This document shows positions 14,862 through 54,900 of a stretch of DNA of 64,000 nt, piece after piece. Where the stretch lies: positions 1 to 64,000 of the forward strand of contig UYFQ01000263.1 of the NCBI GenBank assembly GCA_900617105.1, read 5' to 3'. Below the pieces are notes generated by a model that saw only the letters and a program-made list of their open reading frames with translations, searched no databases and was not told the origin of the DNA. Position 1 is the first letter of the stretch; every line of letters starts with the position of its first letter. The position numbers and the translations under genes were made by a program. This DNA is from Hydrurus foetidus (Eukaryota).

Positions 14862-15104
14862 CACAAATATAATGATTTGCGGGAATACATCATTGAAGAT
14901 TGTGACAAGCAGTAACCGTTCGGGTGGTCCAAGTTTATATATTCGAGGAAATTATATTTCGTGTGATCACCATAAGGTCAGTTATAAAAAAAAATCAGAA
15001 ATAAAATTGTATTCCTCATAAGGGTAATACCGATTAGTCGCCCAAAAAATGTTTAGGACTACAGAAAGGGGAAACCGTAATGCTAAGAAATAGTTTTGTC
15101 TGCA

Positions 15105-16078
15105 AGAATAGAGGAACTTTCTTACATAAGTGCAGAGGTCAACAGAGTATTTTTTCATACGTGGTGTAATAAGTTTGCCCACAAATACTTCCACCGGAGA
15201 CACCTGAAGAGATTCAGAAAACAATGGCTGTTTATGATAGGCTTGGATTTCCGGGATGCATAGGTAGTACCGACTGTGTTCACATCAAGTGGGAAAGGTA
15301 TTCAAGTGATGATCGTGTTCTACACAAAGGAAAAGAAGGATTTCCGGCTCTATCTTATGAACTTACCTGTGATCAGACCTCTAAAATTACATCTGTCACT
15401 CATGGTTCCCCTGGTACTAGAAGTGACAGAACAATAGTACGATTCGATGGTCATGTGAGTGATATCCATGATGGAGTTAAATATAGGGATGTGAAGTATA
15501 AAATGAGAAGATTGAATGGGGAAGAGTACGAGGAACAAGGTGCTTGGTTATTGGTTGATGGTGGATACCACTAATGGAGATGCTTACAGTGTCCCCTAAA
15601 ACATTCCGCTCTACCTAAGGATATACTTTGAAGTGAATGGGCAGAGACGGTTAGAAATGATGTGGAGTGTGTCTTTGGTGTCTTAAAAGGTGGATTCTAT
15701 TGTCTTAAGTTACCTACTTATTATCATGACAAAGATAATATTGATAACATATTTTACTGCTGTTGCATATTACACAACATTTTATTGCATTTTGACGATT
15801 TATATGTAAAATGGGAAGAGGTTGTGAATTATATTGGTATGGATGGTAATCATGCTGATGAAGATATAGTTATATTCAGACAACTTTTAAGTCGAGTACC
15901 TTTCTTAACACCAGTTACTGATTATACTCTAAGAGGGGCAGTAGCTGTCGAGGACCGTTTTAGAATAGTTCATGGATCTAGTGATTCCGAATTTGAATCT
16001 TCTTATCGTGTATTGCAAAAACAACTCTTTGAACATTATGTGTGGAAGTATCAAAATATACTTAAATTCAATGGCTAA
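15105..16078 (+). pseudogene. PIF/Harbinger DDE transposase pseudogene (copy 2, 5'-truncated, has C-terminus)
   Basis: Inverted copy of 13642-14432 with the same TAA after DGGYH. Confidence 0.88.
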
Positions 16079-16319
16079 AAAAGAAAAAATAATTTTTTAA
16101 CCTTACATGGCCTATTAAATAATAGTACACCATTTGTTTGATTTAATTTGTTTTTTAATTAAGTACAAGTTTTTTCGATGAAAAGTTTTAAAGTTTGCCA
16201 GCGTTATCGCTGTAAATAGAGGGATTTAATCATACAATGCAACATCAACGGACTTTTAAAAAGTAATGATATGTCAAAACGAAAATATGTGATGATAGTA
16301 GGAGTGAGAAATTAGATAT

Positions 16320-24928: not shown

Positions 24929-25136
24929 TGTGGTCGGGCAAATGGAGAATGGGGGGCGAGAGGAGGTAGGCTTAGTTACAGGAGTCTAGGCTAGAAGCTA
25001 GTTAACTTCTAAGTGGACGCTGCAGATGGCTACGACGATACTACAGCCTAACTGTAGTGTACAGTAGTAGTACCCGGTAGGATCCGGTAGAGTCGGTACC
25101 CGGTAGGATCGGGACCCTGGACCCAGTACTATCACA
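24929..25136 (-). mobile_element. Solo LTR related to Gypsy family A
   Basis: TG...CA, 208 bp, 4-bp TSD CCTT on both sides; shares TTAGTTACAGG..GCTAGAAGCTAG..TTAACTTCT with the array LTRs. Confidence 0.85.
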
Positions 25137-29824: not shown

Positions 29825-30774
29825 TTATGACCCCTCAGTTTCACCACTAGATTTTGGAATTCTCCTCAACCCACTGCCATCGAGATAAGCAACACCGGAT
29901 CCTATGGTCGTCACTGCCGTGATCCACCACAAGGGTTCGACGAAAATCTCGGAGGGCAAATCGAAAGCAAAGTTCCCGAGCGACGTTGTTAGGAGGAGAA
30001 ACTGGCAGCAAGTATTCAGTTTGCTCAAGTCGCTTGGAACGATCTCAAATGTGGCGGTGTGTTTCGCATCAAAAAAAGGTGCGCCAACAGGTTTTTCCTT
30101 GAATCTCATCGCGAAAGCCGCTGACACGATTACAACATCACGGCCGATGATGATGGAAGCAAGAGGAAGAGGAAATAGACCTTTAACTGCTAATCCAACG
30201 ACTAGGGACCCGATCAGTACCTTGTCCGCCAACGGGTCAAGACAGGCCCCGAGGGCTGTCTGTTGGTTGTATCTCCTTGCAATATACCCGTCTAACCAGT
30301 CGGAAAACCCAAATAAAATGCAGCCACCAAGCGCTATTCCCTTCATATCGTAGGCTACAGCATAGGCAAGACCAGGTGAGGCAATTATCCTGTCCTTGTA
30401 ACATGGCATGAACAGAGATATTAACACGAGTGGAGTCAAGTTGCAGCAAACCTACAGGATCACCACGAACATTGTGTAAACGACTGAATACATCTGTGAT
30501 GTATTACGATCGAAATCTTCTAATTTCATAGAACGCCTGGATCTTGCGACAGAGAGCTAGAAAAGCAGTCATACCTGGATAGTGTGATCACATTTGGTAC
30601 CGTGAACAGTTCTCTGTTATCAAGGAACGATAGAGCCGATCTGCTTTTGCTGAACATCCTGACTGCTTCGAAAGCAGTGTGGGATTGTGATGGCGTTTTC
30701 GATGAGAGTGACCTCGATATCATGCTGGAAATCCTCATCATGGCTTTACTATTTTTCAGAGGCGTCTGATACAC
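29825..30774 (-). CDS. CDP-alcohol phosphatidyltransferase, likely mitochondrial cardiolipin synthase; exons 30774-30575 and 30389-29825
   Basis: [27 protein letters not shown] signature. GT-AG intron 30574-30390 restores [15 protein letters not shown]-rich presequence-like N-terminus; start codon uncertain. Confidence 0.88.
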
Positions 30775-33162: not shown

Positions 33163-35585
33163 TCAGTCCTGTACCAATGCACCATCGTCAATTTTATTAT
33201 GCTGTAACATTACAGAACACTCAGTGTAGTCTTCTAGCGACCGTCTCATCTGACCAACGGAAAAAGTATTTTTTAGTATGGAGAATACTCGCTCGGCACC
33301 AGCAGATGATGGAGTAAGGGTGAAGCAGTAACGAGCAAATTTTGCCAGATTAGGTAACCTAGCAAAGCGGTCTCCCCAAAATGTTGCACAACGATCCATC
33401 TGAAATTTGTAGACTCCTTCATCATCGGTCCTACGGAAATCCAAAACTTCACGTTTGTAACTGATTAGCTCCTGTACCATACTTTCAATCTCAGGGTTGT
33501 GGAATCTATTGAGCTTAACCACCGCAGTCCTGAAATCATTCGCAAAATTAGGAACTTGGAAATTGTCTCTCATCCATATTGGGTTCGCATATCTGCAAGT
33601 CTTATAAATCTCCAAATCATCACGGAGCTTTCCCATTATAGTGTCATTGAAGTACTTCACACCGCCATGAACACTCAGCTTTGCTTTCTCTATGATGTGT
33701 TCGGTGAGAGTATCTGCACTCATGCCCTCATATAGGACGTTGTCGCCGAGTAGAGTCGTCACACAGTCATCGATTACATCGGACATTCCAGGAAATGAGA
33801 GATCGTCATAGTTATCATTCAGCCAGTCACTGCACTTGATGATCGTATCATAGGCCAACAAAGCACAGCACTTATCACCCTCAAGATTGTATGTTGCTTC
33901 GATCATATTCTTTCCCACTATACCAACAACTCCAAGCTCAAATTTCAGGAAAGCACGTGAGACGTCATTCGCCATGGTCTCTCTTAATCGTTGTATCCGC
34001 GCTCCTTTCTCCATGTCACCATCGCCATCAGCAGTGGCACAGAATGTTGCAACATCCTCGAAATTTTCCATCAGAAAGATGAGCAGCTCCAGTTCGGCCC
34101 ACCATCTTGTATTTCCTGGTGGTTTCCAGCATTTTTGAAAGACATTAAACCTGCTCATTGTATCATTAAGAGTAAATTTGAGACATGTATCGCATCAAGT
34201 AGTTTTTGTGGTTTTATTACCAGTGTGCTGCAGCTTTGTTGTTCCCTCCATGGGCATTGCACAGAGCGCACAAATCCTCCTTAAACACTTTTGCGTTTCT
34301 CGCCTTCATATGCTCGCCAACATGAGTGACAGTATGAGAGAGGCAGTGAAGGTTGGCTGATCCTTTGAAGAGGGACTGTAGTGCAACCATACTCAACTCA
34401 TTCGCTGAAGCTCGGTCTTTTTGAAAGGCCATGATACCACCATGCTCCACAATTCGATCTCCCATTGTAGACCCATACTTGACATTATAACTTACTAATA
34501 CCGTATTAATCGCATTGGATATTTGTTCGTTATCTTTGCAACTCTGGTACTTACCCAGATGCACAAGCTCTTGAACTACACTGAAGTCGAGTGTAACGAA
34601 TCTTAAGATGATCGCTAAAACTTCATCGACGCGTGTTGAGCCGTCAAAAATAACCGTGTAGCCGCTACCACGCTTCAAACTTTTCTTAATTCGTTCGATT
34701 TCGAATTGATGGATTGGAGGTATGTATGAACGCAGATGAGATGAATGAGTTAAAGAGAGCCCCGCACGCTTCTCCAGAAAAGGACGCATATCATCCGCCT
34801 AACCGTAATTTGAACGGCGTGAAACCGTGAAAGGGTGAAGGATACATTCGGTATTTCCATTCATCTCGTACCTTCGAAATCTCAACTCCACTCAGCATAA
34901 GCATGCGAACAGTTTCCATCCTGAAAAAGTCTGTGTTCTCAGTCAACGTGCGTCCCTCATTATCGGGGTTTCCTAGGCGCCATTTTTTCAACGATGAGGA
35001 CAGGACAATTTCCTCAGCGACGTTTTGTCCATCCTTCTCAATATTCCTCTTGTGTAGAGCCGAATCCATATGGCTTTGACAGTTGCTCTTGTTGGGATTC
35101 ACTACCTTCAAGCAGACCCTACACCAAAGTCGTATCAGCCCGTCGACTTGTTTTGTAACCAGAAGCCCCATGTTCTTCTTGTCGCTGATTCTCAGTTGTA
35201 TCTCCATTTTACTCTGGCCTCCTGTCTTCTCTACTCTGTTTGAAGCAACTAGAGTTTTGCTCTCCCGTTCTCTTGATCTCACCGACATATCAGGTACGTG
35301 AGTCTCTTCAATGGAAGTTAAAACGATACTTCCAACTCGCGTTGACTTCTTCTTCAGGATGGCTGTTCCGCCAAAAGTTGGTGGGCCTTTACGCTTGCCG
35401 CTTTGTGTTTCAACATCTTCTGACTCCTCATTCACATCGCTCTGATCGGAATTCTCATTCTCCTCGATTCTCTGTGGCATCGAGTTTGAAAGATCAGTAT
35501 CATCTTCCTGACGGACGATCTGTTCTCCAGAAGATTGCCGCGGTGCCACGAAGTACGAAGATATCGTGGTTTTTCGGGTGCTCAT
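33163..35585 (-). CDS. hAT transposase, ~759 aa; exons 35585-34872, 34798-34221, 34150-33163
   Basis: Two GT-AG introns (73 and 70 bp) join three ORFs in frame. Zinc finger CRVC..H..H, IFDGST, QKDRAS, CLSH, TRW and SSAGAERVFS dimerisation-region motif. Confidence 0.88.
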
Positions 35586-36200: not shown

Positions 36201-39136
36201 TGTCAGGTCATGAGTCACGAAGTGGAGATGAAGTTAGATGGTAGAGCAGTTGCTACATATGCGCGCGCGATATCGATTTGTTCGACCGTGATGCTGATCG
36301 CGTGAGAACAGTAGCGGAGTTGCAATGTCATTGGGCCCGTTTCCAATTATAACTATCGCGATTACAATCACGTTGTATCGTTTCTGCTACAGTCCTAGAT
36401 CTGGGAGTCAATCTAAATATTCCCGCCATGCTTCTTTGGGAATCGGTCTGAGATCGCTGCGATCGAGTCGCGAAGGACGTAGGCAATGAAGTTTCAGATA
36501 TCCTATACCATGGGAGTCCCAATTCCAACGTCGAATGCCCTATCAGAAGCTGCGTTGATGTTGCCGATGACCGGCAATCCTGTTTCACAATGTCGGCTAC
36601 CGCAAAAAGTGATCCAGTTGGATTTCTTGGCATAGAGGATATCATTTCCGCGCGAGAAAAATGTCGTAGGGAGAGGAAGAGATCCTTGACAACTTTCCCA
36701 GCGAAGATGACGTGCTTTATGCTACGTGGATGTCGATCAGTGTTGAAGAGGTGTTGGTGATTGTTAAGCTTCGATGGACGGCAACGATTTCGATTCGAAC
36801 GATCTGAGATCCTGAAAGCCGAAAGTGAACATGAAAGTGTCAACGTCACCTTCTGGGGACATGAAGAAAATCAGAAGTTTTTTTACCGGAATACCTGGGG
36901 GTTCTAGATATGGGGGGTCTATATGGGGGGGTCTATATGAGGTGGGGGGTCGATGGTCGATGGTCGATGGTGACTGAGGGTCCAGAATCCAGGAACCATC
37001 TCTCTTCTCTCTCTCACTTCAACATTCTGTATATCGTATTTTATTGCATTTTTGAGTTCCTCATGATCGAAGGTAACTTTCCCCAAAGTTTGGACCACTA
37101 AATCTTCTGGGAACCCCAAAATTTAGGGGACGTTTCACTTCGCTGGCCTCAGCGATCGCCTGGCCACCTAAAACTGGCCCGGGGCCAGTGAGGCCAGGTT
37201 CGCTCAAGCCTACCCGAGTGGAGAGAGGAGAGTTGGGAGTAAGATCGTGCATTAATCGCGAACTAAACTTTTGGCCTGGCATTTTGGCCTGGAATGTTGG
37301 CCTGGTTGTTCGCTCCCAGGGGGTATTAAAAGGAGAGGGGGCGGATCTCGCTCTCAGGCCACCGGAAAAAATTCTCACATGCCCCTCACTCAACATCCAA
37401 CTACCAGCAGTAGCTCAGTCATTGATATCACCGTGGAGCCCCTCAGTCATACGTACACTGCAGGAAAACTGCAGCAGCTGCTGGGACGATGTAAGTTTCT
37501 CTCCATTGATCATGACCTGCGTCGTGATTTGGCAGTGATACTTTGAATGCACGCTACATCTTTTGCCTGCAATTGATCGAGGGCACAGAGCGTTTTTGAT
37601 AATCAACTTTCCGCCATGAAATCTGTGATGCTTCGGCAGATTAATCTCCTTTGCTTCACGATATCACTCCCGAAATTTCACAGATTTAATCTGGAAATTG
37701 AAGTTTATACGATCATATTCCACTTACTGTCACCATTCTCTGAAGCTCTACCTCATCCATTGACTAAATACCAATTACTGCCCCCGACAGGAACGTCCTC
37801 TCGTCGCAACAATGCTGGCAGTGACGATGCTGCGCCAAATTGGACTCCCGTTGCCTTAAATTGAGGCTTGAACTGGGCTACGGGCTCGAATCGATGGCCA
37901 CCGATATATCGGGACTATTACGTTTGGAAGGTGCCGCCGTCACCGAGTCTTCCCAAATCTCGGATACATCGACACTTTATAATAGTCCTTCCTTTATTCT
38001 GACTAAACTCTCTGCAGGGCTTCGTCTCGCTGGGATTTTACCGCCGAGGTTGCGTTGCTCAAGAAAAGACGTATTTTAGATAGATAGGCATTTTTTACTT
38101 ACAGCATGTTTTAAATCATGTAAATTAAAGAACATTTCACTTGAGAAGTCTCTCAAGCAAATGCGCATGAGATTTGCCTTTGGAGAGGACAGCCTCGCTC
38201 AAAAATTGACTCTATGCTGGGATTTTTGTCCGTAAATTTTGGAAGATGAAACAGCCATTATCTCCATAACAACTCATCTGCAACGGCCCCCAAATGGTGC
38301 AGTCGTTTCATACTCCTAACTCATGGCATATTCTGCCTGTCAGTGGAATTCAAACTAATTTTCAGTAGCATTGGTCAGGTCTCGTTTTTGACTGAAAATA
38401 TGATATCTGCGATTTTGCAACCTCCACACTCGTGGAGCTCATCACTGTGTTTCCTCGATGCCAAATTTTCTGCCTTTCCTTGAAGAACCGGCGCAATACA
38501 AAAATTGAGCGAACTTTGATGGTCAGACTAGTATATAAGGATCATTAATGCATGGTGAGTCACGACCTAGTGTTATAGTTTCCACTATGTGTATATCACA
38601 CGTACATACGCACGTTGCTCACAACCACAAGTTTTTCATTCCAGTTTTCTGTTTCTGATTCTTAGATTGCTTCAACTCGTGATGCACTCGTTGCCTGTCA
38701 ATCTCACTCACTTTTCATCGCTTTAAAACTTTAACTGAAACACCTATACCGATACGGCTTCTCTTAGCCATCTCCGCTATTCTGGACTGACTTTCTTGTC
38801 AGCTAAAAGATCTTCGTCTCCTGCTTTCTTGCAGAACGAATCACCGCTTTTCGTCACTTCACGACGTGCAACCGGCATAAAAGTACTTTTCTCATTCACG
38901 CACTTCGCGCAATCGAAAGATGCTTTCCTCGGAAAGTTATTCAGTATCTTATCTCATAGAGGCCTCGACCAATTTGCACAATTACTCTACTCTGAGAAGA
39001 TTCGGACATAAAGCTACGCAAGCTCCGAAGAAGCAAGAGTCAAGAAGTTTTTGTGTAAGTCTTTGTTTCCAATCTGAAACTTCCGTCTACAGCCGATCTA
39101 CGAATTCTCTTCTCCTATACTCTGGCTAGAAATTCC

Positions 39137-42100
39137 ATGTCGCTAGAAGATTCTACCAACTCTAAGGATAACAACCCAGCAGTGGATAGTCAACTAGACA
39201 TGATGCTCATGTTCAAACAGTTCATGAAGTCAAGCCAAGAAGACAGAATCCGCAACTCAAATGAGTTTACAGAGCTCCGATCAGCGATAGCCTTGATATC
39301 CAGAGGATCCCCGCAGATTTCACTCGATTCACCAATTCCAGATCGAGCCAATGCCAATAGAAGATCTTCAATGTTCTTCGGCAGTCCGTTACCAAAGGAA
39401 CGCGAATCGACGACGAAAACGCAAATACAAGTACTGCAAGCTGACATCATCTACGATAAAGAATTGAAAGTCAGCTCACTGGAAGGACTGCAGTATCTTG
39501 CAAAGCAGCTACAACTCTTTACCTCCAAGTATCCTGGTCGCGAAGTCAGGACTGCACATATGGTTGCCTTCTCGCTGCGCCCTCACGTTATTGCTTCATG
39601 GAACTCTTACTGCTTCAAGGAATCTCAAATCGCGGGATTGGAAGTAAAAGAAATTATGGTTGAGGACTGGTTATCCCTATCCAATGGTCAAGTTCAAGAA
39701 ATCCTCGTTGAGTCTGCTCGACCTCGGACGCGAGAACTCTATTCTCGCGAGCTCGTACTCTTCCTTGGCAAAGGCATTCCCCAGACTCCGACAATCAACC
39801 CTGAAAACTTTTCGTCCACGTTCTATGCGCCTCTGATGAAATCCCTCAATGACCTCCTCCATCTCCACGATTTGCTATCTGAAGAGACAAGCAATCACAG
39901 CAACAACAAATCCAAAATGCCTGTTCCGGGATATGGAACTCGTGATAGCCCTGGCCAGACTCAACTCTGGATCATATCACTCAGCAATCAAAAGGAAGCT
40001 GTTCTTCAATGGCTCGGCAAAGATGAGCTATCCAAGCACAAGACCCTAGCTCCCGCAGTCAAGTTTATTCGCTCTAAACTCATGGAAGGTCGTCTAAACA
40101 GCGAGGCTCGGCAAGACTTTGATTCCAAGCTCACACCCATTCGCTATGAAGACATCAGACATATGCAAGGAGAATCAAACACAAGGCAACAGACGAACTT
40201 CAGTTCGAAGCCACAGAGCAAGCAACACAACAAGATGCCTTTCTCAAGAGACCATCGTCCACTTGATCATTTCTCTGCCATTCATTCCGCTGCACCAGAT
40301 TCTTCATATCGTACCAGCTGTGAAGACGACAACTACTTTGATTCCAATGAAGATGGTGACAACACGATCTACGATGAAGACAACAACGACTTCACCGATG
40401 ACCTCGAGTATTCAACCATCTACAAAACGCCGACAAACTTTCAACACGACAATGAGCTATCCGCACTAGAGAATCTATCTTCCCGCAGTGCAATTGCAAG
40501 TACATTTCGCGGTTACTGTAGCGAGCTGTTCGTCTTTGGTTCTTGCCACCGTCGGGACTCAGGATGTACATTAGATCACACTTCATCTGGACAAGAGAAA
40601 TGCATACACTCCTTCAATCTACTCGCGAAGAGAGACCTGACTCAGCATGGACAACTTCCGGCATTCAGCAACGCTACCACACTATGGTCGTTGGTGACCA
40701 AAGGACGGTGGACGAGGACGATGGACGAGGACGGAGGCGAAAAACGAAGATGGGGGAGGTGGAAGAGTATTCTTATAGTTTACAGCGAGAAACAAGCAGT
40801 AGTATCTACAGTGATGTGTACTCGCGTGGAAACGAAAAGAAAAGAAAACTGTACCGGACTTTGGGTCCGTTCTAGAATCTACAGTACAGGTATAGTATAC
40901 AGTCACAGTGTATCCGTACATGCAGTACAGATACAGTGAGGCTACACTACCCCTTCTTCCCTTTTCTTTTCCAATGAACTCTACTAATATTTGTATGAGA
41001 GTGGGAAAGAAAGACGAAACAAAACACATTTTGAAAAAAAAAAATGAGAAACTTCGAAAACGATGATGTCAGACTCTTACTGACTAAATTCCTCCAAAAA
41101 AAGAATATAAAAAAATAGGAGGTAAATTCTTCATGAATAACGTTTCGAGTGAAGAAATCAACGGTGTTGTTTATTGATTAGTTTTGTCAAATTATTTTGA
41201 CGCAAGTAATCATGAAGTTTATCAACATCACGAAGATTGGAGTAAGGCTCCCAAGTGTTTTTATCAGAAGGGTAATTTAACCATTTGACTAAAAACTCAA
41301 TCTTGGAGCGTTGATGAGGTCCACGGTGATCAACGATGTCTTCTACGAAGTATTCCATATGGTCACGACGCGCGACATCAACAGGATTTGTAATCGCTGG
41401 ATCATACAGAAACGGTTTCATGGCAGATACATGATATACCGCTGTTTTTTGTGTGATCAAATCGTATAGAGTGTAACGAGAATTTTCGCCACTGACGACT
41501 TTTAATGGACCTCTCCAATGCGTATGAAGACGTGTTGGAGGTGATCCATCGCGATAATGTACAAGAACATATGAGTCGCGAGGGTACTCAATATGCTGAG
41601 AGATCTGAGATTGGTTTTGATGAAGTAAATCTGTACGAAGAAGTTCTTTGGCCGAAGCTTTGAGAAGACTATCTTGTATTTTTAATAGATTGCTCATACG
41701 TGCCGACAAAGGTTTGTCATTAATAACAAGTCTCTCAGATGGAGGAAGAAATATTCCTCTGTCTAATTTGAGTATATTGCCGAAAAGCAATTGAGATGCA
41801 GAGATTTTAAACGATCACTGTGATTAGAATTTAAAATTCGTTGCACAAATGGTAGTGATGTTGAATAATCATCAAGCGTTACGTTATCGTAAGTTAAAGC
41901 ACGAAGGTGTCTATTAACTTCTTTATTCATGCGTTCAACAATGGCGTTTTCTTCTTTAGAATAAGCTAACGTTAAACAGTGTTGAGTGCCAATAAGAGTT
42001 AGAAACTCTTTGATAACTTCGGCAATGAAGTGTGGCCCATTATCAGAACGGAGTTGGAGAGGTGCGCCGAAACGACCGAAATGTTGCAAAAGGCATTGAG

Positions 42101-45100
42101 CAGTCGAAAGTGCCGAAGCATCTTTAGTATGAAACAGCTCAACCCACCTTGTGAACGTATCGATAATTACGAGTACGTACCCCCGTCTGGAAACGGTCCT
42201 ACGAAGTCTATGTTAAGGCATTCCATAGGTGTGTAAGTAGAAGTCGAAAAGCCGTGAGCATGAATTGGGATCTTTAACATGCTCATCTTTTGACAACACG
42301 AACAGTGATCTATGAACCACCTGACATGCTGTCGTTGAAACTGCCACACCTTGTTGTTGTCTTTGAGACGCTTTAAAGTGCGCTCAAGACCAAAGTGACC
42401 AACTTGTGAATTGTGTACATTACTTATAGTATTGTATTGTTCACGAGTCAGTTTGAATTTTTCAATAATATTGGCAGACATGATTGTCTCAAGTGAATAT
42501 TCTTGAGGATGGTCAATCATGTTGTTACGACAGAGTCGAGACATCGAATCGGCTATGTCATTGTTAACACCAGAAATGAATTCAATTTTAAATGAGAATT
42601 CTGATAAAGCCATAAGCCAACGAACAATCATTGGATTTGAATGATTTTTAATGTATAACAAGTTACGATGATCGGTGCGTAAAGTAAACATCCGATCACG
42701 TAATAGCGATTTTAAATACGTGCACGCAAAGAAAATAGCATATGCTTCTTTCTGTATAACTGCCCACCTAAGTTGAGCTTTGTTAAGCGATTTACTAACA
42801 AATGCTACGGGCGTCTCTTTTCCGTCAACTAACTGAAAAGATAAGCACCTACACCGTAATCCGATGCATCAGTGTGCAAGTAAATCGGATCGGTGTCACT
42901 TAAAAGTGCATTGTCGTGCATTTTGCAGTTTCAGATTTAATTAACTCAAATGCTGAGTCAGCTTCTGGTGTCCAAACTATTTTTTAGATTTATTATAATC
43001 AACAAGCAACTGGTGTAACGGATATAGTACACTTGAAGCATTTTTGATAAAATCGTGAAAATAGTTTACCAAACCTAAAAACTTTTAAGTTGTTTAGATA
43101 TATCTGGTTTTGGAAAATCTAAAACTTGCCGTATTTTTTCTTGTGACATTTTTAGTCCTTCAGCAGAAAGGACTTTGCCAACATAATCAATTTCGGAATA
43201 GCCAAGATAACATTTATTTGGTTTAAGAAATATTTTATGTTGTCGAAAGCGTTGAAAAACAAGACGGAGTCTAAAAAGTAATTCGTCAGTGTCTTTGCCG
43301 AAAACATTGCAATCATCAATGTACATTTCGCATATAGTGTAAATCAATCCAGCTAATACAACAGTTGCCATGGTCTGTTGAAAGTAAGAAGGAGCTCGTT
43401 TAGGCCCAAAGGGCAGACGAGTGAATTGATACACGCCACAGAAAAGTATGAATGCAGTGTATGCGCGTGCTGCCAGTGTAAGCGGTGCTTGATGATATCC
43501 TTGAGTGAGATCAAGTGTAGCGAATACTTTAGCTTTATGAGCACCAATTCGACGTAACATTTCATTTATGTTAGGAATGGGCCATGATGCATCTTCGGTA
43601 CAATCATTAAGATTTCGATAATCTATACACATGCGTTTGGTTCCGTCAGACTTTGGAACCATAAGCACTTGGCTGTAATAAGCCGCATTTGATTTCTCGA
43701 TAATCCCTTGCTCTTCAAGTTTCGCGAGTTGACGTATAATGTCAGCTTGATTTGCAGTGGATTGTGGTCGAGGAGGTGTTCTATTACGGGAGACTTTCCA
43801 TTTTACGTCATCCACGTTAAGTTCAAACGGTGGGATATCAGCAGGGCTAGCCGGAAGCTCACTGCTAAATATATCCCTAAATTCGTTACATAGTAAACGG
43901 AGTTTATTTTTCTGATCTTCATCACCTGCTATGTGTATTAGCGAGAGTGAATCTGTATCAAGAAATTCATTAATCCATGGTGAAAAGGAGTCATTTAATG
44001 AATCATCAATTTCATCTTCATCAGGCGGCACAACTCCAAATAGTTGTTCCGACTCTTGAATTAACGAAGCTAGTATGACATGTGTTTGGGTGACTGCCGG
44101 ATCTTTCATTTGGGTTAATGAAAGATCTTTTGGGGTTCCTTTAGAGGTTTGCAAAGTCTCTTCGGGCTGACAGCCACATGTTATGACCACATCTTCAGAA
44201 GTCGAGACTCCCTTTATTGGGGTTGGTCGCGATGAAGTGCTTGATTTTATTTGATCTGGGAAAATCGAGAATAGATCTAAATCTCGTATAATTTTTCTTC
44301 CCACTATTAGATCAATTTGTGTTTGTTCTAAAACATAAGCCGTGATTTGGAAAGAAGAATAATTATTTAAATCAGGGCAAAAATAAGAAAGTTTTAAGTC
44401 GATGGTTTCAGAAATTTCATAGCAATGATTATCTAAACCACTACAAACTTTACACGCTGTCTTAGAAGATTTAGAAACATGTTGTGTTAAGTTAAGATTA
44501 TTTATAACACGCCTAGCTATAAAATTGCTGGCGATCGATCCCGTATCCAATAGAGTGAAGACTCTATTTTTCTCTTCCAGCGAAGTTTGCTGAGAAATAT
44601 GAGAAATAAAGAAGGGGATTAGATGTTTATCCGATGAAACGGAAGGGTTGTCAATTGACGACATATTAAGGTTGTAAACGTAGTCACCTTTTTGTTTCTT
44701 CGCGACACGAGTAGTGTCTGCTGACGAGGCAGCGGTCTTAGAAGACGCAGAAGAAGAGGAGGAAGCGGAAGAAGAAGATGTTCCGTACGCGTTTGGAATG
44801 AACGTCGCTTTGGGATCGATCTTCAAAAGATCTTTGCCTCCTTCCGACTGAAGGAAAGGTTTCTCGGTACTGTTAAAGTACGGAGAAGAGCCGAATCGAC
44901 AAGTGGCTACTAAGTGGCCAAGTCTCCCACAGCCGGTACAGTGGGGTTTGTCAGATTGCTCAGGCTTCTCGTCCTCTCGTTGCCGTTTTTAATTCGTGGC
45001 TCTTGAGGAGGACGGTTAGAGTTTTTGATTTGGCGAGAATGATCGCCATAAGTCGGGTGGACGTCTACAAACCGTAAAGCATCAATTGCTTCTCGTAGCT

Positions 45101-46538
45101 TTCTTAGTTGCGCACGCCACACGAATCGAAAATCATCGACCGTGATAAGACGTGGCGTTCTATCGAGAGTGCGGTACAAAACTGACCTCCAATTAATGGG
45201 TTCAGCTGGCAACTTATCAATAAGAATTTTAGTTGCTGTTAACTGCATGGCAGCTGACACCTCAGGGAATGCATCGACAATATCAGCTAAAAGCTGGTCT
45301 GTCTTTTCTTCCACTGATGGGTTCTTCAGGTCAAATTGAATTTGAATCTGAGTAATGGATTCAATGAATCCTAGTTTATCCGTTCTGGACGTCGCAGTTG
45401 CAGGAATTGCCAAATTCAATTCTCTACAAAAATTCTGATTAGTCCAGTTTCTCCAGTTGTTACAACTGTCTCGACGATCAGGGTCGGTTGCAAATCGAAG
45501 TTGCAAAAGGGTTTTAAAAGATTGGAAGTTGCTGTGATGAACGACATCAACTGGCCGAAACGGCGTTCCATTCGAGAGGAGAACCTCTGAAACTCTTTGA
45601 ACCTCTTGCCAAGACGGCTTGGCGCTCAACTTAGGAGCTTTCTCACCAACTTGCACGTACTGAGTTGGTGGTGCCAAAGCACGTTGATTAGCAGATCTAT
45701 CGACCGAAGTCGACGTGATCTCAGCCGAAGCTGGTGTCGCAGCCGAAGCTGGTATCGCAGCCGAAGCTGGTGAAAGAGATAAAGCAGACAACGCAGAAAT
45801 GACAGGCACATCAATAGCAGACACGACCGCAGGCCCCGACGTCGGCTGAGACGCCGGCGCAGACAGGTCTCCGGCGGGGTCCTGAATCGCAGGTGATCCA
45901 GGAGACTCTATGTCTTGGACATTGCGCTGCGTATGTTTGAGATACGCCTTCCGTGCTGCGACGGCGACAGCGCGCGGCTGAGCTCGTCTTAAGATGGCGC
46001 TGTTGTTGTCGGTGGTGTTGATGGTTGCCTTAGCGTTGGTGGTTGCCTTAGCCGAGGCTTTGGCACGGATGCGGCGAATTGCCATGATCCGAAAAATTTC
46101 CCGAGAAAAGATGGATGAGCTGAAGAAAGAATTTTGGTCGTAGGAACCAAATATCGATATTATGGTCGTTGGTGACCAAAGGACGGTGGACGAGGACGAT
46201 GGACGAGGACGGAGGCGAAAAACGAAGATGGGGGAGGTGGAAGAGTATTCTTATAGTTTACAGCGAGAAACAAGCAGTAGTATCTACAGTGATGTGTACT
46301 CGCGTGGAAACGAAAAGAAAAGAAAACTGTACCGGACTTTGGGTCCGTTCTAGAATCTACAGTACAGGTATAGTATACAGTCACGGTGTATCCGTACATG
46401 CAGTACAGATACAGTGAGGCTACAACACCAGAACGATCAGGATCATTTAAACCATCATTTCCTACCTCTCGCCAGGATAGCCGAATTCCGAAACCTTACG
46501 TATCCAATCAAGGCATGCGCTCACTCAAGAACAAGTAG
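39137..46538 (+). CDS. gag: Family C Gag (39137-40682 + 46429-46538, ~551 aa once the family B insertion is removed)
   Basis: First ORF after the 5' LTR. Removing the insertion and one TSD restores the frame (..NATTPERSG..KNK-TAG). The last ~85 aa of track ORF 39137-40939 are LTR read-through. Confidence 0.82.
40683..46424 (-). mobile_element. Full-length Ty3/Gypsy chromovirus, family B, nested in family C gag
   Basis: 264-bp LTRs 40683-40946 and 46161-46424 (1 difference seen), element-sense TG..TA ends, 4-bp TSD ACAC, PPT at ~40947-40972. Confidence 0.95.
41158..46085 (-). pseudogene. gag-pol: Family B gag-pol with several frameshifts
   Basis: CCHC knuckle CTGCGRLGHLVATC (~44940-44899) in frame with pol; protease LLDTGS; RT YIDD; RNase H TDH/ADSMSR; integrase IDF/RSDNG/ENAIVE; chromodomain FLVKWLNY..NTWEP. 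Confidence 0.9.
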
Positions 46539-49500
46539 GAGTTTGCAGGACCTTCTCTCACTGCAATGCAAGGAGAAGATCATCCTGCCGACAACCCCAA
46601 CATATTTGACCCAGACAATACCATATCGACGGCTCTCATTGCTCAACTAGCGTCTACAATCTCAGTTGATCCAAAAGACCTGTGCCACCCGTTTATTCGG
46701 CCAGGAACAATACGTAGTCCCGACGGATCCTCTACAATTGTTTTCGATAAAGGTCTACTCGACACTGGCGCCCAAGGCAGCAACTTCATTTCAGAAGACC
46801 TGTACTCGCGTCTGCCGGCCATCATTACCAATTTATCGAGACCCATCGATCGTGTTGTTCGACTAGGAGACGCACGACACCTCTTCATACAACTTGAGGT
46901 ACCACTAAATGTCTCCATTACGGACTTCAATGGACAAGACCATGAACACACTCTATGGTACATTGTCCTTAAAGAACTTAGCCATGACATCATCATAGGA
47001 CTTGTTGATCTCATCGGCCCTTTCTACACTCTATTCGAAAACTCAGTTGCCACATCGCGCCATATCGCCAAGTCTCGTGATCTCGGTAGTCACCTATCCG
47101 CCTTGACAACGACAATTATGACCTTAGCAACCAACGATCCAACTGACTATATGATGCAGCAAACTTCTGAGGCAATCAAGTTGGAACACACTGTCTACAA
47201 GGATCGGAAACGTTCAATCCAATCCAGCGTGAATACAACTGTTTCTCTCCTTGCTCTACAAGATGGCTCAACAGTTGAAACACTCCATCATCCTTTGCAC
47301 GGCAACGTCTATGCTGACGAACGGATGGAAACAAGATACGACATCTTGACCTCACAATTATGCACCCCAACCCCAGGTCTTGTCATGACACCGTGGTCCA
47401 ATCCGATTGATGCACTCGCTCCCGAGGAACTCGATACGCCTGACCCTACCAGTTTCCCGGATGACATACTCGGATATCTCGCTATGACTCCTGAAAGTGC
47501 ACGCGCAATTTACCGCGTCGATCTCGAGACCCATATCACAACTGAAATGCGAGAGGCTTGCCCGCATATAGTAGACCTACTGACATCAGAACTAGCATAC
47601 GATGTGTTCGTACCGAGCACCTGGACTGGCATACGCATGGATCCATATCATCTCGATACCAAACCCGGCCTTCCAGATCATATCAAAGCACATGCTCGAC
47701 CAGTACGTGAAGCACTCTTTGAAGATGCTAGGACAGAATTCAATAGAATGCGGACATATTTCTACGAGAAGTCAACGTCACCAATTGCTTCGCCGCTAGT
47801 AATTGCTCCCAAAGCCACAGCCCCTTTCATTCGTATCTGTGGCGACTACCGTCCAATTAATCCTTACGTGAGCATCCCACAAGAACCGATACCTCATGTG
47901 CAGCAATCACTCGCCAAAGCTGCTGGATGGAATGTATTCGTTGATCTAGACATGACTAACTCGTTCCATCAAATTCCAATCGACATTGCCAGCTCTAATC
48001 TCCTATCAGTATCTACACCGTGGGGCTTATTCAGACCAAAATTTTTGCCAGAGGGTGTCGGACCTGCGTCAGGCATACTGCAGTCAGTAGTACGCCGAGT
48101 ATTTTCTGACTTCGAACAGTGGATCATCGTAATCTTCGACAACTTTCTGATTCTGGCGTCCGACTATGCAGACGCTGCAGACAAGCTGGAGAAAGTGCTC
48201 ATCCGTTGTCAATTGCATCGGCTCGTACTCAAGATGAAAAAATCATGGATCGGCACCGCTGTAGTCACATTCTTTGGCTACGAAGTGAGACCCGGATCTT
48301 GGAGTCTCTCCAACAGCCGTAAAGAGGCAATATCCAATATGATCTTCCCAGCAAACCAGAAGCAAATGCAAAGCTTCCTAGGTGCCGCCAACTTCTTTCA
48401 CACTCATATCCCCAATTACGCACAGTGGGCATCGTGCTTGTATGAATGCACTACAGCATCGTTTGATTGGAACCCCTCGACATGGACCAAAGACTACAAA
48501 GATCTCTTCGCTATCTTCAAAACCGCGATAACAAATTCTGCAACACTCTACTTCCCGGACTACTCTCTTCCATGGATCATTCGCTCAGACTCTTCGGATT
48601 ACGCAGTCGGTGCAGTCCTGTTCCAGGAGTTCACGGACACGTCAGACAATGTTATTCATCAGCCAATAGCATTTGCATCACACAAGTACTCAGGCGCCGC
48701 CATCAATTGGGACACGTTCAAACAAGAGGCTTACGCTCTCTACTTTGCAGTGACACAGTTCTCATACTACTTACGTGGCAAACCGTTCGTCATCGAGACC
48801 GATCACCGCAACCTAGTTTGGATAGAATCGAGTTTAGTTCCTATTGTTATTCGCTGGCGAGTACTGTTGCAGAGCTACGTATTCGATATCAAACACATAC
48901 CTGGCAAGCAGAACATGGTCGCCGACTGGCTGTCGCGAATGTACCCTATACCCGTTCCAGTTCTCACAGCTATCACAGACTACCCACCTTTAAGCGAAAT
49001 GTTCGCTGCTGTCCACGGCAATCGCTCCCTGCATCACGGTGCAAAGCGTACGTACACTAAGTTGTGTTCCCGCTACCCTGGTCATGGCATTCCGATACGT
49101 GTTATACAAGACCTTGTATTTGAGTGTCCAATATGTCAGAAAGATCGCATACCTTTACAGCCCATCCCTCACGCTGAAGCACGACAAACACTGATGCATC
49201 ATGCTCGCACTATCGGAATGGATCACGTCACAGTGACACCCGCTGATGAGGATGGCTATATCGGACTCCTGCTTGTAGTTGAACTTGACACGAAGTTCCC
49301 CCAAGCATATCCTGTCAGAGACTACGGTGCACTCACTGTCGCCACCGTGCTATTCAAGCACTATTGTACGTTCGGTACATACAACGCTATCATATCTGAT
49401 CCTGGCAGTGCCTTCACTGCAACAGTCGTGCAACATCTCAACACATGGTTCGGCATACCGCATCATATCTCTGTAGTCGGACGACATGAGTCAAACGGAA

Positions 49501-50342
49501 CGGAACATGTCAATGCTCTATTCATCGGCCACCTCCGTCGACTCGTCCACGATCAACGGATGACTAACCGCTGGGCCTCGGACACAATACTCCCCCTTAT
49601 CAATCATGCCATGTCGACGATGCCAAATTCCGAAATCGCTGGCTATTCACCGCATGATCTCAAATTTGGAACAGTCGATAAGCAGCACTTCCGGTTACCG
49701 ACAGCTCTGCCTCCTGGAAATTCATACGCGGAATTCATCAATACATTGAATGAGAATTTGTCAACAATACGTGCCATTACAAGCCAATATCAACTCGAAC
49801 TACGTACCAGGCGACAACTTGAGAATCCTGCTGCCAGTCAAAAGCTGTATCAAGCCGGTGATCTCATACTGTGGAATCCGAGAGAACATTCGAAGTCCTT
49901 CAGGTCGTCAAAACTAGCTCCAAAATTACTGGGACCCTTCGTTGTGTTGACTCAGAAGAAGAACGATGTTACGTGTGAGCATATGCAATCAAAAGAAATT
50001 CGTGTGTTTCACGCATCTCGCATCTCTCCCTACATTGGTTCACACACATCAGCAGCAGATGCTAGTCTACTGGATTCAGAGGAATATATTGTCGAGTCAA
50101 TAACAGCACATCGAGGATCATGGACATCACTTACCTCACTCGAGTTCCTTGTACACTGGCTTGGATATCCAACCGAAGACGACACTTCGGAACCATACCG
50201 CAATCTTCGTCATCTTGATGCCCTCCACGAGTACCTGCGAAAAAATAATAAAGAGAATATAATACCAAATATCCACCGGAACTTCTCCGCGATGTACACT
50301 GATCGTGGCCAGGTATCACAAACTGCTGACCGCTCATTGTAA
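46539..50342 (+). CDS. pol: Family C Pol (protease, RT, RNase H, integrase, chromodomain), uninterrupted
   Basis: 1258-aa ORF from 46566, open back to the gag TAG. LLDTGA; DLDMTNSFHQI; IFDN in place of YxDD; RSDSSD/KQEAYA/TDH/ADWLSR; H..H..CPIC, GMDH, ISDPG, NGTE; FLVHWLGY chromodomain. Confidence 0.93.
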   Translation, partial: EFAGPSLTAMQGEDHPADNPNIFDPDNTISTALIAQLASTISVDPKDLCHPFIRPGTIRSPDGSSTIVFDKGLLDTGAQGSNFISEDLYSRLPAIITNLSRPIDRVVRLGDARHLFIQLEVPLNVSITDFNGQDHEHTLWYIVLKELSHDIIIGLVDLIGPFYTLFENSVATSRHIAKSRDLGSHLSALTTTIMTLATNDPTDYMMQQTSEAIKLEHTVYKDRKRSIQSSVNTTVSLLALQDGSTVETLHHPLHGNVYADERMETRYDILTSQLCTPTPGLVMTPWSNPIDALAPEELDTPDPTSFPDDILGYLAMTPESARAIYRVDLETHITTEMREACPHIVDLLTSELAYDVFVPSTWTGIRMDPYHLDTKPGLPDHIKAHARPVREALFEDARTEFNRMRTYFYEKSTSPIASPLVIAPKATAPFIRICGDYRPINPYVSIPQEPIPHVQQSLAKAAGWNVFVDLDMTNSFHQIPIDIASSNLLSVSTPWGLFRPKFLPEGVGPASGILQSVVRRVFSDFEQWIIVIFDNFLILASDYADAADKLEKVLIRCQLHRLVLKMKKSWIGTAVVTFFGYEVRPGSWSLSNSRKEAISNMIFPANQKQMQSFLGAANFFHTHIPNYAQWASCLYECTTASFDWNPSTWTKDYKDLFAIFKTAITNSATLYFPDYSLPWIIRSDSSDYAVGAVLFQEFTDTSDNVIHQPIAFASHKYSGAAINWDTFKQEAYALYFAVTQFSYYLRGKPFVIETDHRNLVWIESSLVPIVIRWRVLLQSYVFDIKHIPGKQNMVADWLSRMYPIPVPVLTAITDYPPLSEMFAAVHGNRSLHHGAKRTYTKLCSRYPGHGIPIRVIQDLVFECPICQKDRIPLQPIPHAEARQTLMHHARTIGMDHVTVTPADEDGYIGLLLVVELDTKFPQAYPVRDYGALTVATVLFKHYCTFGTYNAIISDPGSAFTATVVQHLNTWFGIPHHISVVGRHESNGTEHVNALFIGHLRRLVHDQRMTNRWASDTILPLINHAMSTMPNSEIAGYSPHDLKFGTVDKQHFRLPTALPPGNSYAEFINTLNENLSTIRAITSQYQLELRTRRQLENPAASQKLYQAGDLILWNPREHSKSFRSSKLAPKLLGPFVVLTQKKNDVTCEHMQSKEIRVFHASRISPYIGSHTSAADASLLDSEEYIVESITAHRGSWTSLTSLEFLVHWLGYPTEDDTSEPYRNLRHLDALHEYLRKNNKENIIPNIHRNFSAMYTDRGQVSQTADRSL

Positions 50343-50414
50343 CATGGTACGAGACCACTATGTGAGGACGTCCTTAGAAAGTGGGTAACCCCTGCAAAAA
50401 CAACTATTTAAAAA

Positions 50415-51095
50415 TTATTTCCCCAAAGGGATCGAACCCGAGGGGGGAGTCGAACCCGGAGGTTGAGATGCCTTCTTCCACCCCTTCTTGTACAAATCAA
50501 AGAAGAAACAATACGTCAAATCAGCCATTTTATCTGCCAAGTTCTCCACAGTAAATTCAACACTACCAGCAGTACACGCATTGTCAAATAATCTCACTCC
50601 GTTTTCATCACTACGTATACTGACTGCGTGATCATGCCTGCTGTACCCTGTCGCTTTCTTGCTATAAGTCTCCACTTTGTCCTCCACGCCTTCCGCTTTC
50701 CCTATCCTCTTTAACAAAGCTTTGTGTTCTGCGTTCTTCAACTTTGATTTGCCGAACAAAATGTATATACCCTTGTTCGCCAGCACTGTCTTGATCAATG
50801 ATTTCACGCACCAGCACCTGTCTTTGTCCACTCTGCCTATCACCCTACGGAACTCGAACTTCAACTTCCTGCCCAACTTCCTATTCTGTAAACACACATG
50901 CTTCAAAAAATTCAACGCGTCATGCGATGATGCTCCGTAATGTAGTTTGCTTGTGACATCGACAGCAATTGAATTCTTGTACACATCACCAGCATCACCA
51001 CCCAATCGAATCCAATCCTGCTTTTCGCTCGACAATGGCATTACCATTGCTGCTGCCAGGCATAAATTCTTTGACGACCTGAAGTCGTCTGTCAT
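50415..51095 (-). CDS. Antisense accessory ORF in family C, putative papain-like (C39-like) cysteine peptidase fold
   Basis: 226-aa ORF between pol and the 3' LTR with ordered motifs NLCLAAAM, YGASSHDAL, DHAVSI, RLFDN. Confidence 0.55.
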   Translation of the reverse strand: MTDDFRSSKNLCLAAAMVMPLSSEKQDWIRLGGDAGDVYKNSIAVDVTSKLHYGASSHDALNFLKHVCLQNRKLGRKLKFEFRRVIGRVDKDRCWCVKSLIKTVLANKGIYILFGKSKLKNAEHKALLKRIGKAEGVEDKVETYSKKATGYSRHDHAVSIRSDENGVRLFDNACTAGSVEFTVENLADKMADLTYCFFFDLYKKGWKKASQPPGSTPPSGSIPLGK

Positions 51096-51280
51096 GTTCT
51101 ATACTTGTGTTGTGCTTGTCATGTAGTATATATCGTGCACCATCACACAGCCATCAATTTATCAATGGTTATCACGGCGGCACCATCAATTTAAAAAAAA
51201 ATCTTTCAGAGCCACACATGCCACCACACGACATGAGTGCATCCCGGTTTCGCTTTTCCTCACATTTACCTTGTGTACAC

Positions 51281-51356
51281 GGCTCAGTGGTAGAGCGCCC
51301 ACTTTTCCGCCCCTTTTTGGCGCGCCAAGAGGTCTGCGGTTCAAACCCAGCTTTTT
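51281..51356 (+). promoter_or_regulatory. tRNA-derived A-box/B-box element (not an intact tRNA)
   Basis: D-arm GCTC-AGTGGTA-GAGC, B box GGTTCAAACCC at 51338-51348, then TTTTT; no acceptor or anticodon stem. Confidence 0.6.
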
Positions 51357-51984
51357 CATCCACCTATCGTTTTCGCACTTACTGCACTATGTAGCTTCTT
51401 TAGCGGTACATTTCTTCATGCGAACTCTCAGAGATGTAGCAGAAGACTTTTTGTTTATTTATTTGACATCCAAAATTAGACATTTCACCTGGAGAGGGGT
51501 GGTGTTATAGTTTCCACTATGTATATATCACACGTACATACGCACGTTGCTCACAACCACAAGTTTTTCATTCCAGTTTTCTGTTTCTGATTCTTAGATT
51601 GCTTCAACTCGTGATGCACTCGTTGCCTGTCAATCTCACTCACTTTTCATCGCTTTAAAACTTTAACTGAAACACCTATACCGATACGGCTTCTCTTAGC
51701 CATCTCCGCTATTCTGGACTGACTTTCTTGTCAGCTAGAAGATCTTCGTCTCCTGCTTTCTTGCAGAACGAATCACCGCTTTTCGTCACTTCACGACGTG
51801 CAACCGGCATACTAGCCTAGCAACTCCAAGATGGGCCAAGGGACCTTACGGGGTAAAAAATGGAAAACGAAACGGGCGACGGGTAGTTCAATTTTTCGAA
51901 AATTGAGTGAGGGGCATGTGAGAATTTTTTCCGGTGGCCTGAGTGCGAGATCCGCCTCCTCTCCTTTTAATACCCCCTTGATTA

Positions 51985-54900
51985 TAGCGTGCCAAACGAT
52001 TCAAAAAGAAATCTCCCCCTGGGATCTAAAAAATCCCCCCGGGATTTCCGTCTTCGAGAATATTCTAATTTCTTGGTCCCCTACGGTGGCGTTTTTTTCT
52101 GACATTAAAAAAAATGTTTTACGGAAATCATTTTGTCACTGAAAACATCAAAAGTCAAAAATTCGCTCGATACTACTGCAGCGCAAGCACAATAGAAGTC
52201 AATAAAAAGCAAATCTGAATCAGCCATTGTTCTTGGCAGGGTTTACTAGGCCAATATCAAGAAGAGTCTGGTGTCTTCAGTGAATCTAGGTTCGCAAAAA
52301 TTGGCCGTTTCAAGCGCTTCCAAATGCATATTTCAGCATCAGCCTGCGACGCTCTAGTGGGGATTTTTGATGAAATAGCACCTCATAACCTACATGACAT
52401 CATATGAATCAAAATCCCCAGCAACGGCAGTATCTGGAAGGTCAAAATATCGATCATGAAAAAATTGAAATTCCGGGACAGAGGGGAAAAAATGCTGCTG
52501 ATTTTGAATGCTACTTCCAATTCAGACTGTAGGGTAAATCTTGTCTACCGGATTCAGAAATAGTGCTCAAAAGCTCCGTAAGTGGAAAATTGGTTGTGTT
52601 CTTTAATTGTGTAGTGAGACGCACTGCAACCATTTCGTCGAGGTGAAGGGGGCGTTCCGGGCCTTTTAAAAACTGAAAACTGTAGTTTTCTGCGTGTAAT
52701 GAGAACCGTATTAATGGAAGAATTGTAGAAATCAACCTTTAAACATCAAACACACATTTAAAAAACTATTCTTCCTTGTCTGACAAATGCTCTTAACTAA
52801 TCTCGACGTTCTGAATCGAATGCATGATTCAGATTTTTGTGATTCGATCAGCAAAAAAAGTTGTGACAGGGTCCCAAAACACCGTAGGGGACCAAGAATT
52901 TCTGAAAACTTCGAATTTGAAACCGTCAGGAAATCAAATGCTATCTGGGCACTGGGCGGCGGAGTATGGGATAATTTTTTTAACATAGACTCAACCGGTT
53001 GGTTGGGGGTCTGTATATTAACAGTGTGTGTGATGTGTGAGTAAGAGGTGATTATCCTACCAAAGCGATTAAGTATATGTTAAGAATAATGACATTGGGG
53101 AACTCCTAAATAACTGGACTCATAAATGTAGTTTATGAGAAGGTTCATTAATATGGCATGTCACCGAATGAAGTAAATTTGAGTAACTAATTTTGATGTA
53201 ATAAAATTCATTCCAATTAATAAGTTTAAATTTTTGGAATGAAATATATTGACTTGTGTTGTTGACTAGGTTGTGGTTCTTAATTTTTACGACAAATATT
53301 GGATATTGAGGACTCATAAAAGTAGTTGCAGAGCTATTATTTTCAACTGAGTTGAGTTCTAGGTCCAAAAATAACCTGTAAATTATGTTTGTATACGGAT
53401 AACTTGGCTTCCATGCCTTTAGGCTAAATTAGAGAACAAAATTGGTTACTTTAGCGAGACAGAAATTTTTATTTTGAAAAGTCTCTGAATTATTAAAATG
53501 TCTCTCGTAAATAGAGAAGACCTTGGACTTAATTCCAAACTTGGGGATCTTGTACCTTAATTAATTAAAAAAACCAAAAAAGAAAGAAACGAAACCGTCG
53601 AGAAATCTTGAAGTGGACTTCGAAGATATTCAGCATACCTCTCAACTAATGTCTGCGCATGCACTACTTCACAGATTAAAGTACACTACTGAATTTTGCA
53701 TGGTGACGTCTTGAGTTGCAGTTAGGTTGAGAGATTATCGAAGGAGGACACACTGACGGGTGAGTGGCTGTGGTTGATTTGTCTAGAAGATGATTCGAGA
53801 TTTGCGCAGGCAACATTTACAAATTTGCCACTTACTGAATTAATTATTTGCGCCTAAAAACAGTCAAGATAAAAGAAGACCAAAGATTGTGGACATCTTG
53901 CCGAGGGTCGTGGAAACTGTCATTGAGTGAACTTGAGGAAGGTAAATTTTGTAAAGCATCTTTGTTTAAGGTCCAATGTTTCAAAATTGAAGCATGCTTT
54001 ATGGTGCCGATACGAAAAGTGCAATTTTATATGATATGGATGATGCAAGTTTTTATTGACCTGAAAATAAAATTTATTTACGTGCGTAAAGTAAATATGT
54101 AGAAAATAATTATTTTGTAGATGAAGCTTTTATATTACTGCATTTGTGGGAAGAGAACTCATAATATAAAAAATCAGTACCAAAACGTAGGATTGGTATT
54201 GTTATGTAGTTTTTTATGACTGTTGTTTTGCATGGGGTCAGTTGTGTTTATTTGAGGAATGTATATTAAATTTTCATTCGGAGCGTCTCAATTAAATGCT
54301 GTGTAAATTATTTTGATTACCAGTGATTAATATAAAGTCATACATCAATTAATGTTGAGTTTGTAATCATATGTTACAGGATATTTTAAGTGATGTATTA
54401 AGAAAGAAAAGGAAAATGGACGAAGTATGAGAATACTTGCCAAGGTGTGTAAGTAAATTTATCTTTTATCAATAATGTTATAATGCCTAAGTGTCCTAGG
54501 TTTGATAAACATAGTGTAATATAATTATACCTATTATTTATGTTTGCGTTATTGTTTTGCATGGGGTCAGTTGTGTTTATTTGAGGAATGTATATAATAT
54601 TTGTAATGTACTGCAATATGTAGTAGCTTAATATGATGACTTAGCATCTAATTAATATCAAATTACCATCTAATTTATAGAAGTATAATCTAAAGTGTGA
54701 AAAATCACCATCTAATATTGATTTTTTTTTATTTTTTTTGCAGAATTGAAATTAAATGCTGTGTAAATTATTTTGATTACCAGTGATTAATATAAAGTCA
54801 TACATCAATTAATGTTGAATTTGTAATCATATGTTACAGGATATTTTAAGTGATGTCTTCAGAAAGAAAAGGAAAATGGACGAAGTATGAGAATACTTGC

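Follow-up and report, generated by a model that had tools for sequence, protein, structure and literature searches.

A perfect, covarying 12-nt palindrome as candidate primer site at the 5' LTR of chromodomain Gypsy elements

Retroelements and repeats of the window

The window analysed here is the 64,000-nt stretch at the start of contig UYFQ01000263.1 of Hydrurus foetidus, and its LTR retrotransposons belong to sets designated A, B and C. The family C element (38571-51811, forward strand), delimited by self-alignment and inspection of its ends, has 309-nt LTRs with TG..TA termini and a 4-bp target duplication, CTAG. Its 5' LTR (38571-38879) directly follows one copy of the duplication (38567-38570), and its 3' LTR (51503-51811) is preceded by a polypurine tract and followed by CTAG. 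The internal region holds a gag-like ORF (39137-40682), with 57% identity to the N-terminal part of P0043 and a 3' end broken by insertion of a family B element, and pol (46539-50342), a 1267-aa open frame comprising a protease-like motif, RT, RNase H, integrase and chromodomain, in which the RT carries IFDN instead of YxDD. The family B element lies on the reverse strand (46424-40683), nested within C's gag and separating it from pol. It has a 264-nt 5' LTR with TG..TA ends (46161-46424), a gag-pol region with RT, RNase H, integrase and chromodomain that runs through several frames in this copy (41158-46085), a 3' LTR (40683-40946) and a 4-bp target duplication (40679-40682 and 46425-46428). 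On the forward strand near the end of the window, an A-related element begins with a 207-nt, TG..CA 5' LTR (61212-61418), the end of which was set by homology to family-A LTR copies (85-89% identity); its gag and the start of its pol (61975-64000) are cut by the window end, and its 3' LTR lies beyond. A solo A-like LTR (24929-25136, reverse strand) with TG..CA termini and a 4-bp duplication, AAGG, directly after its CA supports both the LTR end and the duplication length.

The features that identify Gypsy elements were all found: an LTR pair, a target duplication, a polypurine tract, and gag followed by PR-RT-RNase H-IN. A PF00385 chromodomain follows the integrase in C, B and family A, RNase H acidic motifs were found in C and family A, and the best match of the window elements among solved structures was Ty3 Gag-Pol (E 1.4e-43).

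The remainder of the window is rich in repeats. A tandem array on the reverse strand (3702-10279) repeats a family-A 3' end (the end of pol, the 3' UTR, the polypurine tract and the LTR) 11 times, in units of about 587 bp. The region 11201-21975 holds tandem repeats, among them an array with an 81-bp unit in about 60 copies (16.6-21.7 kb), and inverted repeats of 100% identity enclose them (11201-11399 with 21777-21975, and 13420-13641 with 16378-16599). Another tandem repeat, whose period is about 460 bp (54290-56085), lies within a stretch of 26% G+C. We also noted a host cardiolipin-synthase-like gene (29825-30451, reverse strand), whose nearest relative bearing an organism name is from Mallomonas (56% identity) and which falls within a tight group at 53-78%, a hAT transposase fragment (33163-34194, reverse strand) and a DDE_1 transposase fragment (58833-59453, forward strand); the window contains no tRNA gene. 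This one gene with its one named relative, together with matching runs from freshwater, sediment and glaciers, makes a chrysophyte host likely.

Four public runs were compared with the window as assembled contigs, which drop rare variants. The empty site of B, a joint of 40678 to 46425 with four letters fitting both sides, occurs in the contigs of three of the four runs; the nesting of B in C is polymorphic, with a B-free C allele in these three. Contigs end at 38879 in two runs, and loose contig ends fall at 46161 in two. Since the LTR ends are fixed by the 4-bp duplications, the empty-site joint and these contig ends, they are independent of the palindromes described below. B was far commoner than C in the four runs, and contigs of one run, possibly of RNA, cover parts of B and C, with transcript ends and strand not readable from them.

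On the last A of each 5' LTR begins a perfect palindrome of exactly 12 nt, at 38879-38890 in C (forward strand), 46150-46161 in B (reverse strand) and 61418-61429 in the A-related element (forward strand), as the first-pass annotation of this DNA had recorded; we regard these as candidate primer sites. That annotation had also found none at 3' LTRs, which holds for B and C and extends to the 11 family-A LTR ends of the tandem array and to the solo LTR. It had put the probability of chance at about 1/4096 per site; the window contains 52 centres of perfect palindromes of at least 12 nt, which gives a higher rate of about 1 in 1200 per site, and even at this rate three palindromes at three fixed sites are not due to chance.

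A lineage-wide and covarying feature

Relatives of the window elements were found through their proteins, and about thirty of them, from environmental DNA, carry the palindrome. Among the 89 loci fetched, 48 fell in the clades of B or C, and 28 of these had a visible gag start; together with the three window elements they provided 31 leaders for a blind test, the 20 clade loci with no visible gag start being left out. The rule was taken from the window: a perfect 12-nt palindrome starting with A after a pyrimidine, no more than 600 nt above the gag ATG. The 600-nt count was used because at 300 nt the A-related element scored through another, chance palindrome in its leader, and the gag starts of L013, L030 and L044 were chosen by eye after palindromes had been listed. 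The first-pass annotation had proposed looking for enrichment in relatives, and the palindrome was present in 29 of the 31 clade leaders, against 1.3 expected from dinucleotide shuffles of the 600-nt windows, and in none of the 15 leaders of control Gypsy elements. These relatives cannot be taken as independent of one another; their RT-RNase H identities span 86% down to 31%. The two misses represent one element, L006 and its truncated copy L007; L006 has its site on the far side of the contig's circular join, about 760 nt upstream, directly after a TG..CA LTR that follows a polypurine tract. A palindrome at position 6972 of L072 was rejected for want of LTR context. Viral-contig scans queried with C alone or A alone returned no relatives, and an Atlas search with the RT of B returned generic RT clusters only. 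A scan of prokaryote genomes yielded three C-clade pieces, none with a 5' end; these (L002-L004) encode parts of pol, come from short contigs in three bacterial metagenome bins and are probably eukaryotic contamination.

For comparison of the sites themselves we compiled a table of 34, which includes palindromes of neighbouring elements at three loci with no visible gag start (L040, L041 and L047) that were counted only here. The rows of this table were selected as palindromes, so that their 100% pairing is by construction and they show variety of pair types, not enrichment. The 34 sites comprise 16 distinct 12-mers, all perfect and A-T-rich. Pair 1:12 is always A-T, and the other five of the six pairs, including the central one, change on both sides, which are the compensatory changes for which a search had been suggested; pairs 5:8 and 6:7 each occur in all four Watson-Crick types, and the outer four pairs show the strongest sequence conservation. 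The central tetramer is itself palindromic in all 16 distinct sequences and takes 11 different forms. Paired changes separate even close relatives, as in two elements with RTs 86% identical and GTAC and CTAG cores, and two sites on a single contig have CGCG and CTAG cores. No intermediate was found between such symmetric double changes of close relatives, and no G-U-type variant among the 34 sites. Letters change and symmetry stays, which bears out the proposal that self-complementarity itself is kept.

The register is fixed in all 34 sites: position 1 is A, and position -1 is C or T (19 and 15 sites, respectively), so that many LTRs end in TA. The base immediately after the site is C in 16 of 34 and may mark the position of a cut. 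Constancy of length, register and AA..TT ends had been claimed for the window; it holds there, and among relatives the register persists whereas sites may start with AG or AT and 11 of the 34 extend to at least 14 nt. Within family B, contigs of the four runs show no variant at or above 1% inside the site, and both flanks vary. We conclude that the 12-nt palindrome is a real, lineage-wide and covarying feature.

The first-pass annotation had counted three families; A and B share one clade and C belongs to another, so the window holds two deep clades, with RT-RNase H identity of about 31% between them. In a 32-row tree both clades are fully supported, and a branch with support of 99/97 splits them from 11 other Gypsy rows, including L008. 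This tree is unrooted and was built with no named Tf1, sushi or other reference elements; its rows are those of a 67-row quick tree after removal of the half-filled ones, the near copies and the two longest controls. Such a topology allows a single origin of the palindrome in both clades.

Two further traits of clade C came to light in its pol sequences. FDN (in one case YDN) replaces YxDD in 29 of 30 rows, in long open frames, one row being unmatched by the pattern; judged from these translations, the clade-C enzyme is a natural second-Asp-to-Asn RT. The corresponding mutant of Ty1 is reported to polymerise but to be unable to transpose. In addition, five of the 120 clade-C pols listed (P0076, P0078, P0083, P0089 and P0094) contain PF03372, an exonuclease-endonuclease-phosphatase domain that is unusual in an LTR element; in the one pol inspected it is N-terminal.

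Known primer types and pairing capacity

To our knowledge, priming of LTR reverse transcription has only two established ways, by a host tRNA (whole or cut) and by fold-back of the Tf1 type. The palindrome stands where a TGG-starting tRNA site would be expected, as had been noted for the window: none of the 34 sites starts with TGG, whereas a TGG site lies within 8 nt in all 25 control loci with an LTR pair among L050-L089, L059 and L079 being two controls with such sites. In family B a TGG is found beyond the palindrome, 11 nt from the LTR and inside a hairpin of its own. No other primer site was visible at the LTR end, and the 34-site table shows no polypyrimidine tract of the Skipper type. 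No copy of the 12-mers had been seen inside the LTRs, in keeping with our search of the upstream 385 nt or fewer for a Tf1-type complement: across 33 sites the mean longest match in the LTR was 5.85, against 5.81 in shuffles, with a maximum of 8, and a Tf1-type partner was rejected. The LTR of the control L008, with a match of 9 against 5.5 in shuffles, does contain a complement like that of Tf1. A downstream second arm of the kind known as CHSeq2 in GalEa elements was rejected likewise, the longest downstream complement being 4.5 in both real and shuffled sequence.

The self-complementarity of the sites was also examined energetically. Homodimers of the 12-mers are predicted at -6.2 to -14.9 kcal/mol at 37 C, where the bare 12-mer does not fold (hairpin energy 0); the A-U-rich homodimers are weak, at -6 to -7 kcal/mol in four of the 16 sequences. 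Flanking sequence adds pairing, giving -8.8 against -6.5 +/- 0.6 kcal/mol in flank-swapped controls (the relatives not being independent), through a helix of 3-5 bp in which the leader pairs with the U5 end and one to three bases bulge out on the U5 side. At offset +2 this helix occurs in 11 of 32 cases, against 3.7 with swapped flanks, a count to which the same non-independence applies; it is missing in the family C element of the window and in several relatives. In some elements the flanks extend the hairpin to between -3 and -7.5 kcal/mol.

The nearest published counterpart is GalEa, a fungal Copia group in which the last A of the 5' LTR belongs to a 10-nt palindrome that stands at the place of a tRNA site, its mechanism being described as unknown (PMC5445492; cited in PMC6934838); the text of PMC5445492 proposes it as the equivalent of a primer site. 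The first-pass annotation knew of nothing like its observation; this does not stand, a palindrome in the same register having been published, with no mechanism, for GalEa (PMC5445492). Both share a palindrome with the LTR's final A at the primer position, no tRNA site and no complement in U5, as far as the text of that article describes them (PMC5445492). However, GalEa elements are Copia with 10 nt and two sequences in 85% of families, whereas ours are Gypsy with 12 nt and 16 sequences; the same text gives them 5-bp duplications and, at 12-41 bp downstream, the second arm CHSeq2 (PMC5445492), whereas 4-bp duplications and no arm are found here. The Copia order of GalEa also places integrase before RT, unlike the Gypsy order of the window elements.

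Elements of the Tf1 type self-prime from the 5' end of their transcript, as described in the texts of PMC6317226, PMC4600332 and bioRxiv 2022.12.06.519325. Tf1, Tf2 and Tj1, the Tf1-sushi group and Tcn1 resemble the window elements, on the published descriptions, in being chromodomain Gypsy elements with a tRNA-independent primer site at the LTR end and U5/leader duplexes. The element's own RNA is the primer there and is the proposed primer here. In the descriptions available for Tf1, however, a non-palindromic site pairs in cis with the transcript 5' end, whereas no LTR complement exists here, and the carriers of the palindrome group apart from the Tf1-like control L008 in the unrooted tree. 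Skipper of Dictyostelia, compared by its description, is likewise a protist chromovirus with neither TGG nor LTR complement; it has a degenerate polypyrimidine tract instead, for which its authors proposed a novel form of self-priming, and the string "palindrom" occurs 0 times in the main text of the article (PMC5006619). By membership the feature is neither of the Tf1 type nor of GalEa; its proposed action would be that of a self-priming element, and GalEa is its positional precedent. Our literature search, which covered article texts and few subscription journals, brought up no description of a palindromic primer site in Gypsy elements; the per-element primer sites in the supplements of PMC5445492 and PMC6317226 may bear on this point.

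Models of priming and their significance

With moderate confidence we favour a reading in which two co-packaged genomic RNAs pair through the palindrome and one of them is cut to prime the other in trans. The two genomes would form an antiparallel RNA:RNA duplex of 12 bp, often lengthened by the short U5/leader helix with its one to three bulged bases, and the RNase H of the element would cut one of the strands, either at position 12 or beside it. Tf1 RNase H cuts an RNA duplex, giving an 11-nt primer. The new 3'-OH, paired at the terminal A of the LTR or one base inside it, would then start synthesis into the partner's U5. Plus-strand strong-stop DNA would copy the palindrome of the primer, and progeny would receive the site once directly and once inverted, so that second-strand transfer would need a site that is self-complementary in DNA also. 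Such a demand for symmetry at the DNA level would purge G-U variants, and repair would convert a site with one mismatch into a different palindrome that is again perfect. We prefer pairing of two RNAs because the site stands where minus-strand synthesis has to begin while no TGG, LTR complement or downstream arm offers another primer, because the centre is palindromic and because the 12-mer does not fold alone. Against trans priming stand the weakness of the A-U-rich homodimers, the lack of the flanking helix in C of the window and in several relatives, and the length of the primer (R-U5-palindrome), which would need a plus-strand stop or a second cut. A long inverted repeat centred on the site, the expected read-through product, was found in no locus, and the single-mismatch "flip" variants that trans priming predicts did not appear at or above 1% in the family B contigs, which drop rare variants.

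The first-pass annotation had offered either pairing of two RNAs or fold-back of one, and it is the first part that is favoured. Priming in cis would have the RNA cut after position 12, a 4-bp stem and 4-nt loop then setting the 3'-OH at the U5 end; this gives the same geometry with a single molecule, and both the conservation of the outer four pairs and the hairpins stabilised by their flanks are what it would lead one to expect. The would-be loop, however, is palindromic in every distinct sequence and in each of its 11 forms, the lone 12-mer stays unfolded at 37 C, and a cut in cis would part the 5' end of the template from the genome, all of which makes fold-back very unlikely. An unlikely but weightier candidate is a signal for dimerisation, packaging or second-strand transfer, the primer being a protein, a short prematurely ended transcript of the element or some other RNA. 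It accounts for perfect symmetry with a free centre just as well, the U5/leader helix would display the palindrome like a kissing loop, and Donnart et al. draw that comparison for GalEa in the text of PMC5445492. Short palindromes also join two RNAs in the particle in retroviruses, at their dimer-initiation sites, and in Ty3, where dimers in the initiation complex form through 12-nt palindromes in tRNAiMet according to the text of PMC5371799. But these palindromes, as described, lie beside a tRNA primer, neither replacing it nor abutting the LTR end; retroviral dimer sites are separate from and additional to the primer site (PMC5445492, in its text), whereas here the register to the last A of the LTR is invariant and no other primer site is visible.

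We give still less credence to the idea that a fragment of a host tRNA, cut in the anticodon loop or halved as in Copia, Ty5 and Helenus, or another small host RNA acts as primer, the symmetry being incidental. Anticodon-loop priming without a TGG is established for several Copia lineages, in the accounts of PMC10886601 and PMC6317226, and the former describes it for Copia and Helenus. The same account confines truncated-tRNA priming to Copia lineages (PMC10886601), and each of the 16 palindromes, with their symmetric double changes, would need a matching host RNA. Equally improbable is a role in DNA alone, in which the palindrome would form a cruciform or hairpin that serves strand transfer, the processing of ends or the formation of circles, or would bind a dimeric protein. 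The lack of G-U-type variants suggests a demand at the DNA level, and the nuclease-fold PF03372 domain of some clade-C pols would fit such a role. Yet that domain is missing from most carriers, a perfect palindrome of 12 bp is generally too short to form a cruciform that is stable, a dimeric protein would have no need of a centre that is symmetric but free in sequence, and minus-strand priming would be left unexplained.

That a perfectly covarying palindrome occupies this position in both deep Gypsy clades is an indication of priming in trans, which would link dimerisation to initiation. We give an even chance to a broader proposal, that LTR retrotransposons have a third mode of starting, in which a pair of genomes is used and one is sacrificed, with neither tRNA nor fold-back in cis, and that this mode is old, common among microbial eukaryotes, self-correcting and, in GalEa, an independent acquisition of Copia. 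It would be old because it is shared by two clades whose RT-RNase H identity is about 31%, and self-correcting because template and primer would each contribute the site to every progeny DNA, the primer in inverted form. Priming by hairpins has been suggested to predate priming by tRNA (PMC3601003).

For annotation, the combination of TG..YA ends, a 4-bp duplication and a 12-nt palindrome provides a signature of LTR ends, and tools that require TG..CA and a tRNA site would miss such elements. The finding bears on the priming of the many elements recorded with no primer site detected and on the palindrome of GalEa, and it makes the question testable. If confirmed, priming in trans would be a third mode of priming.
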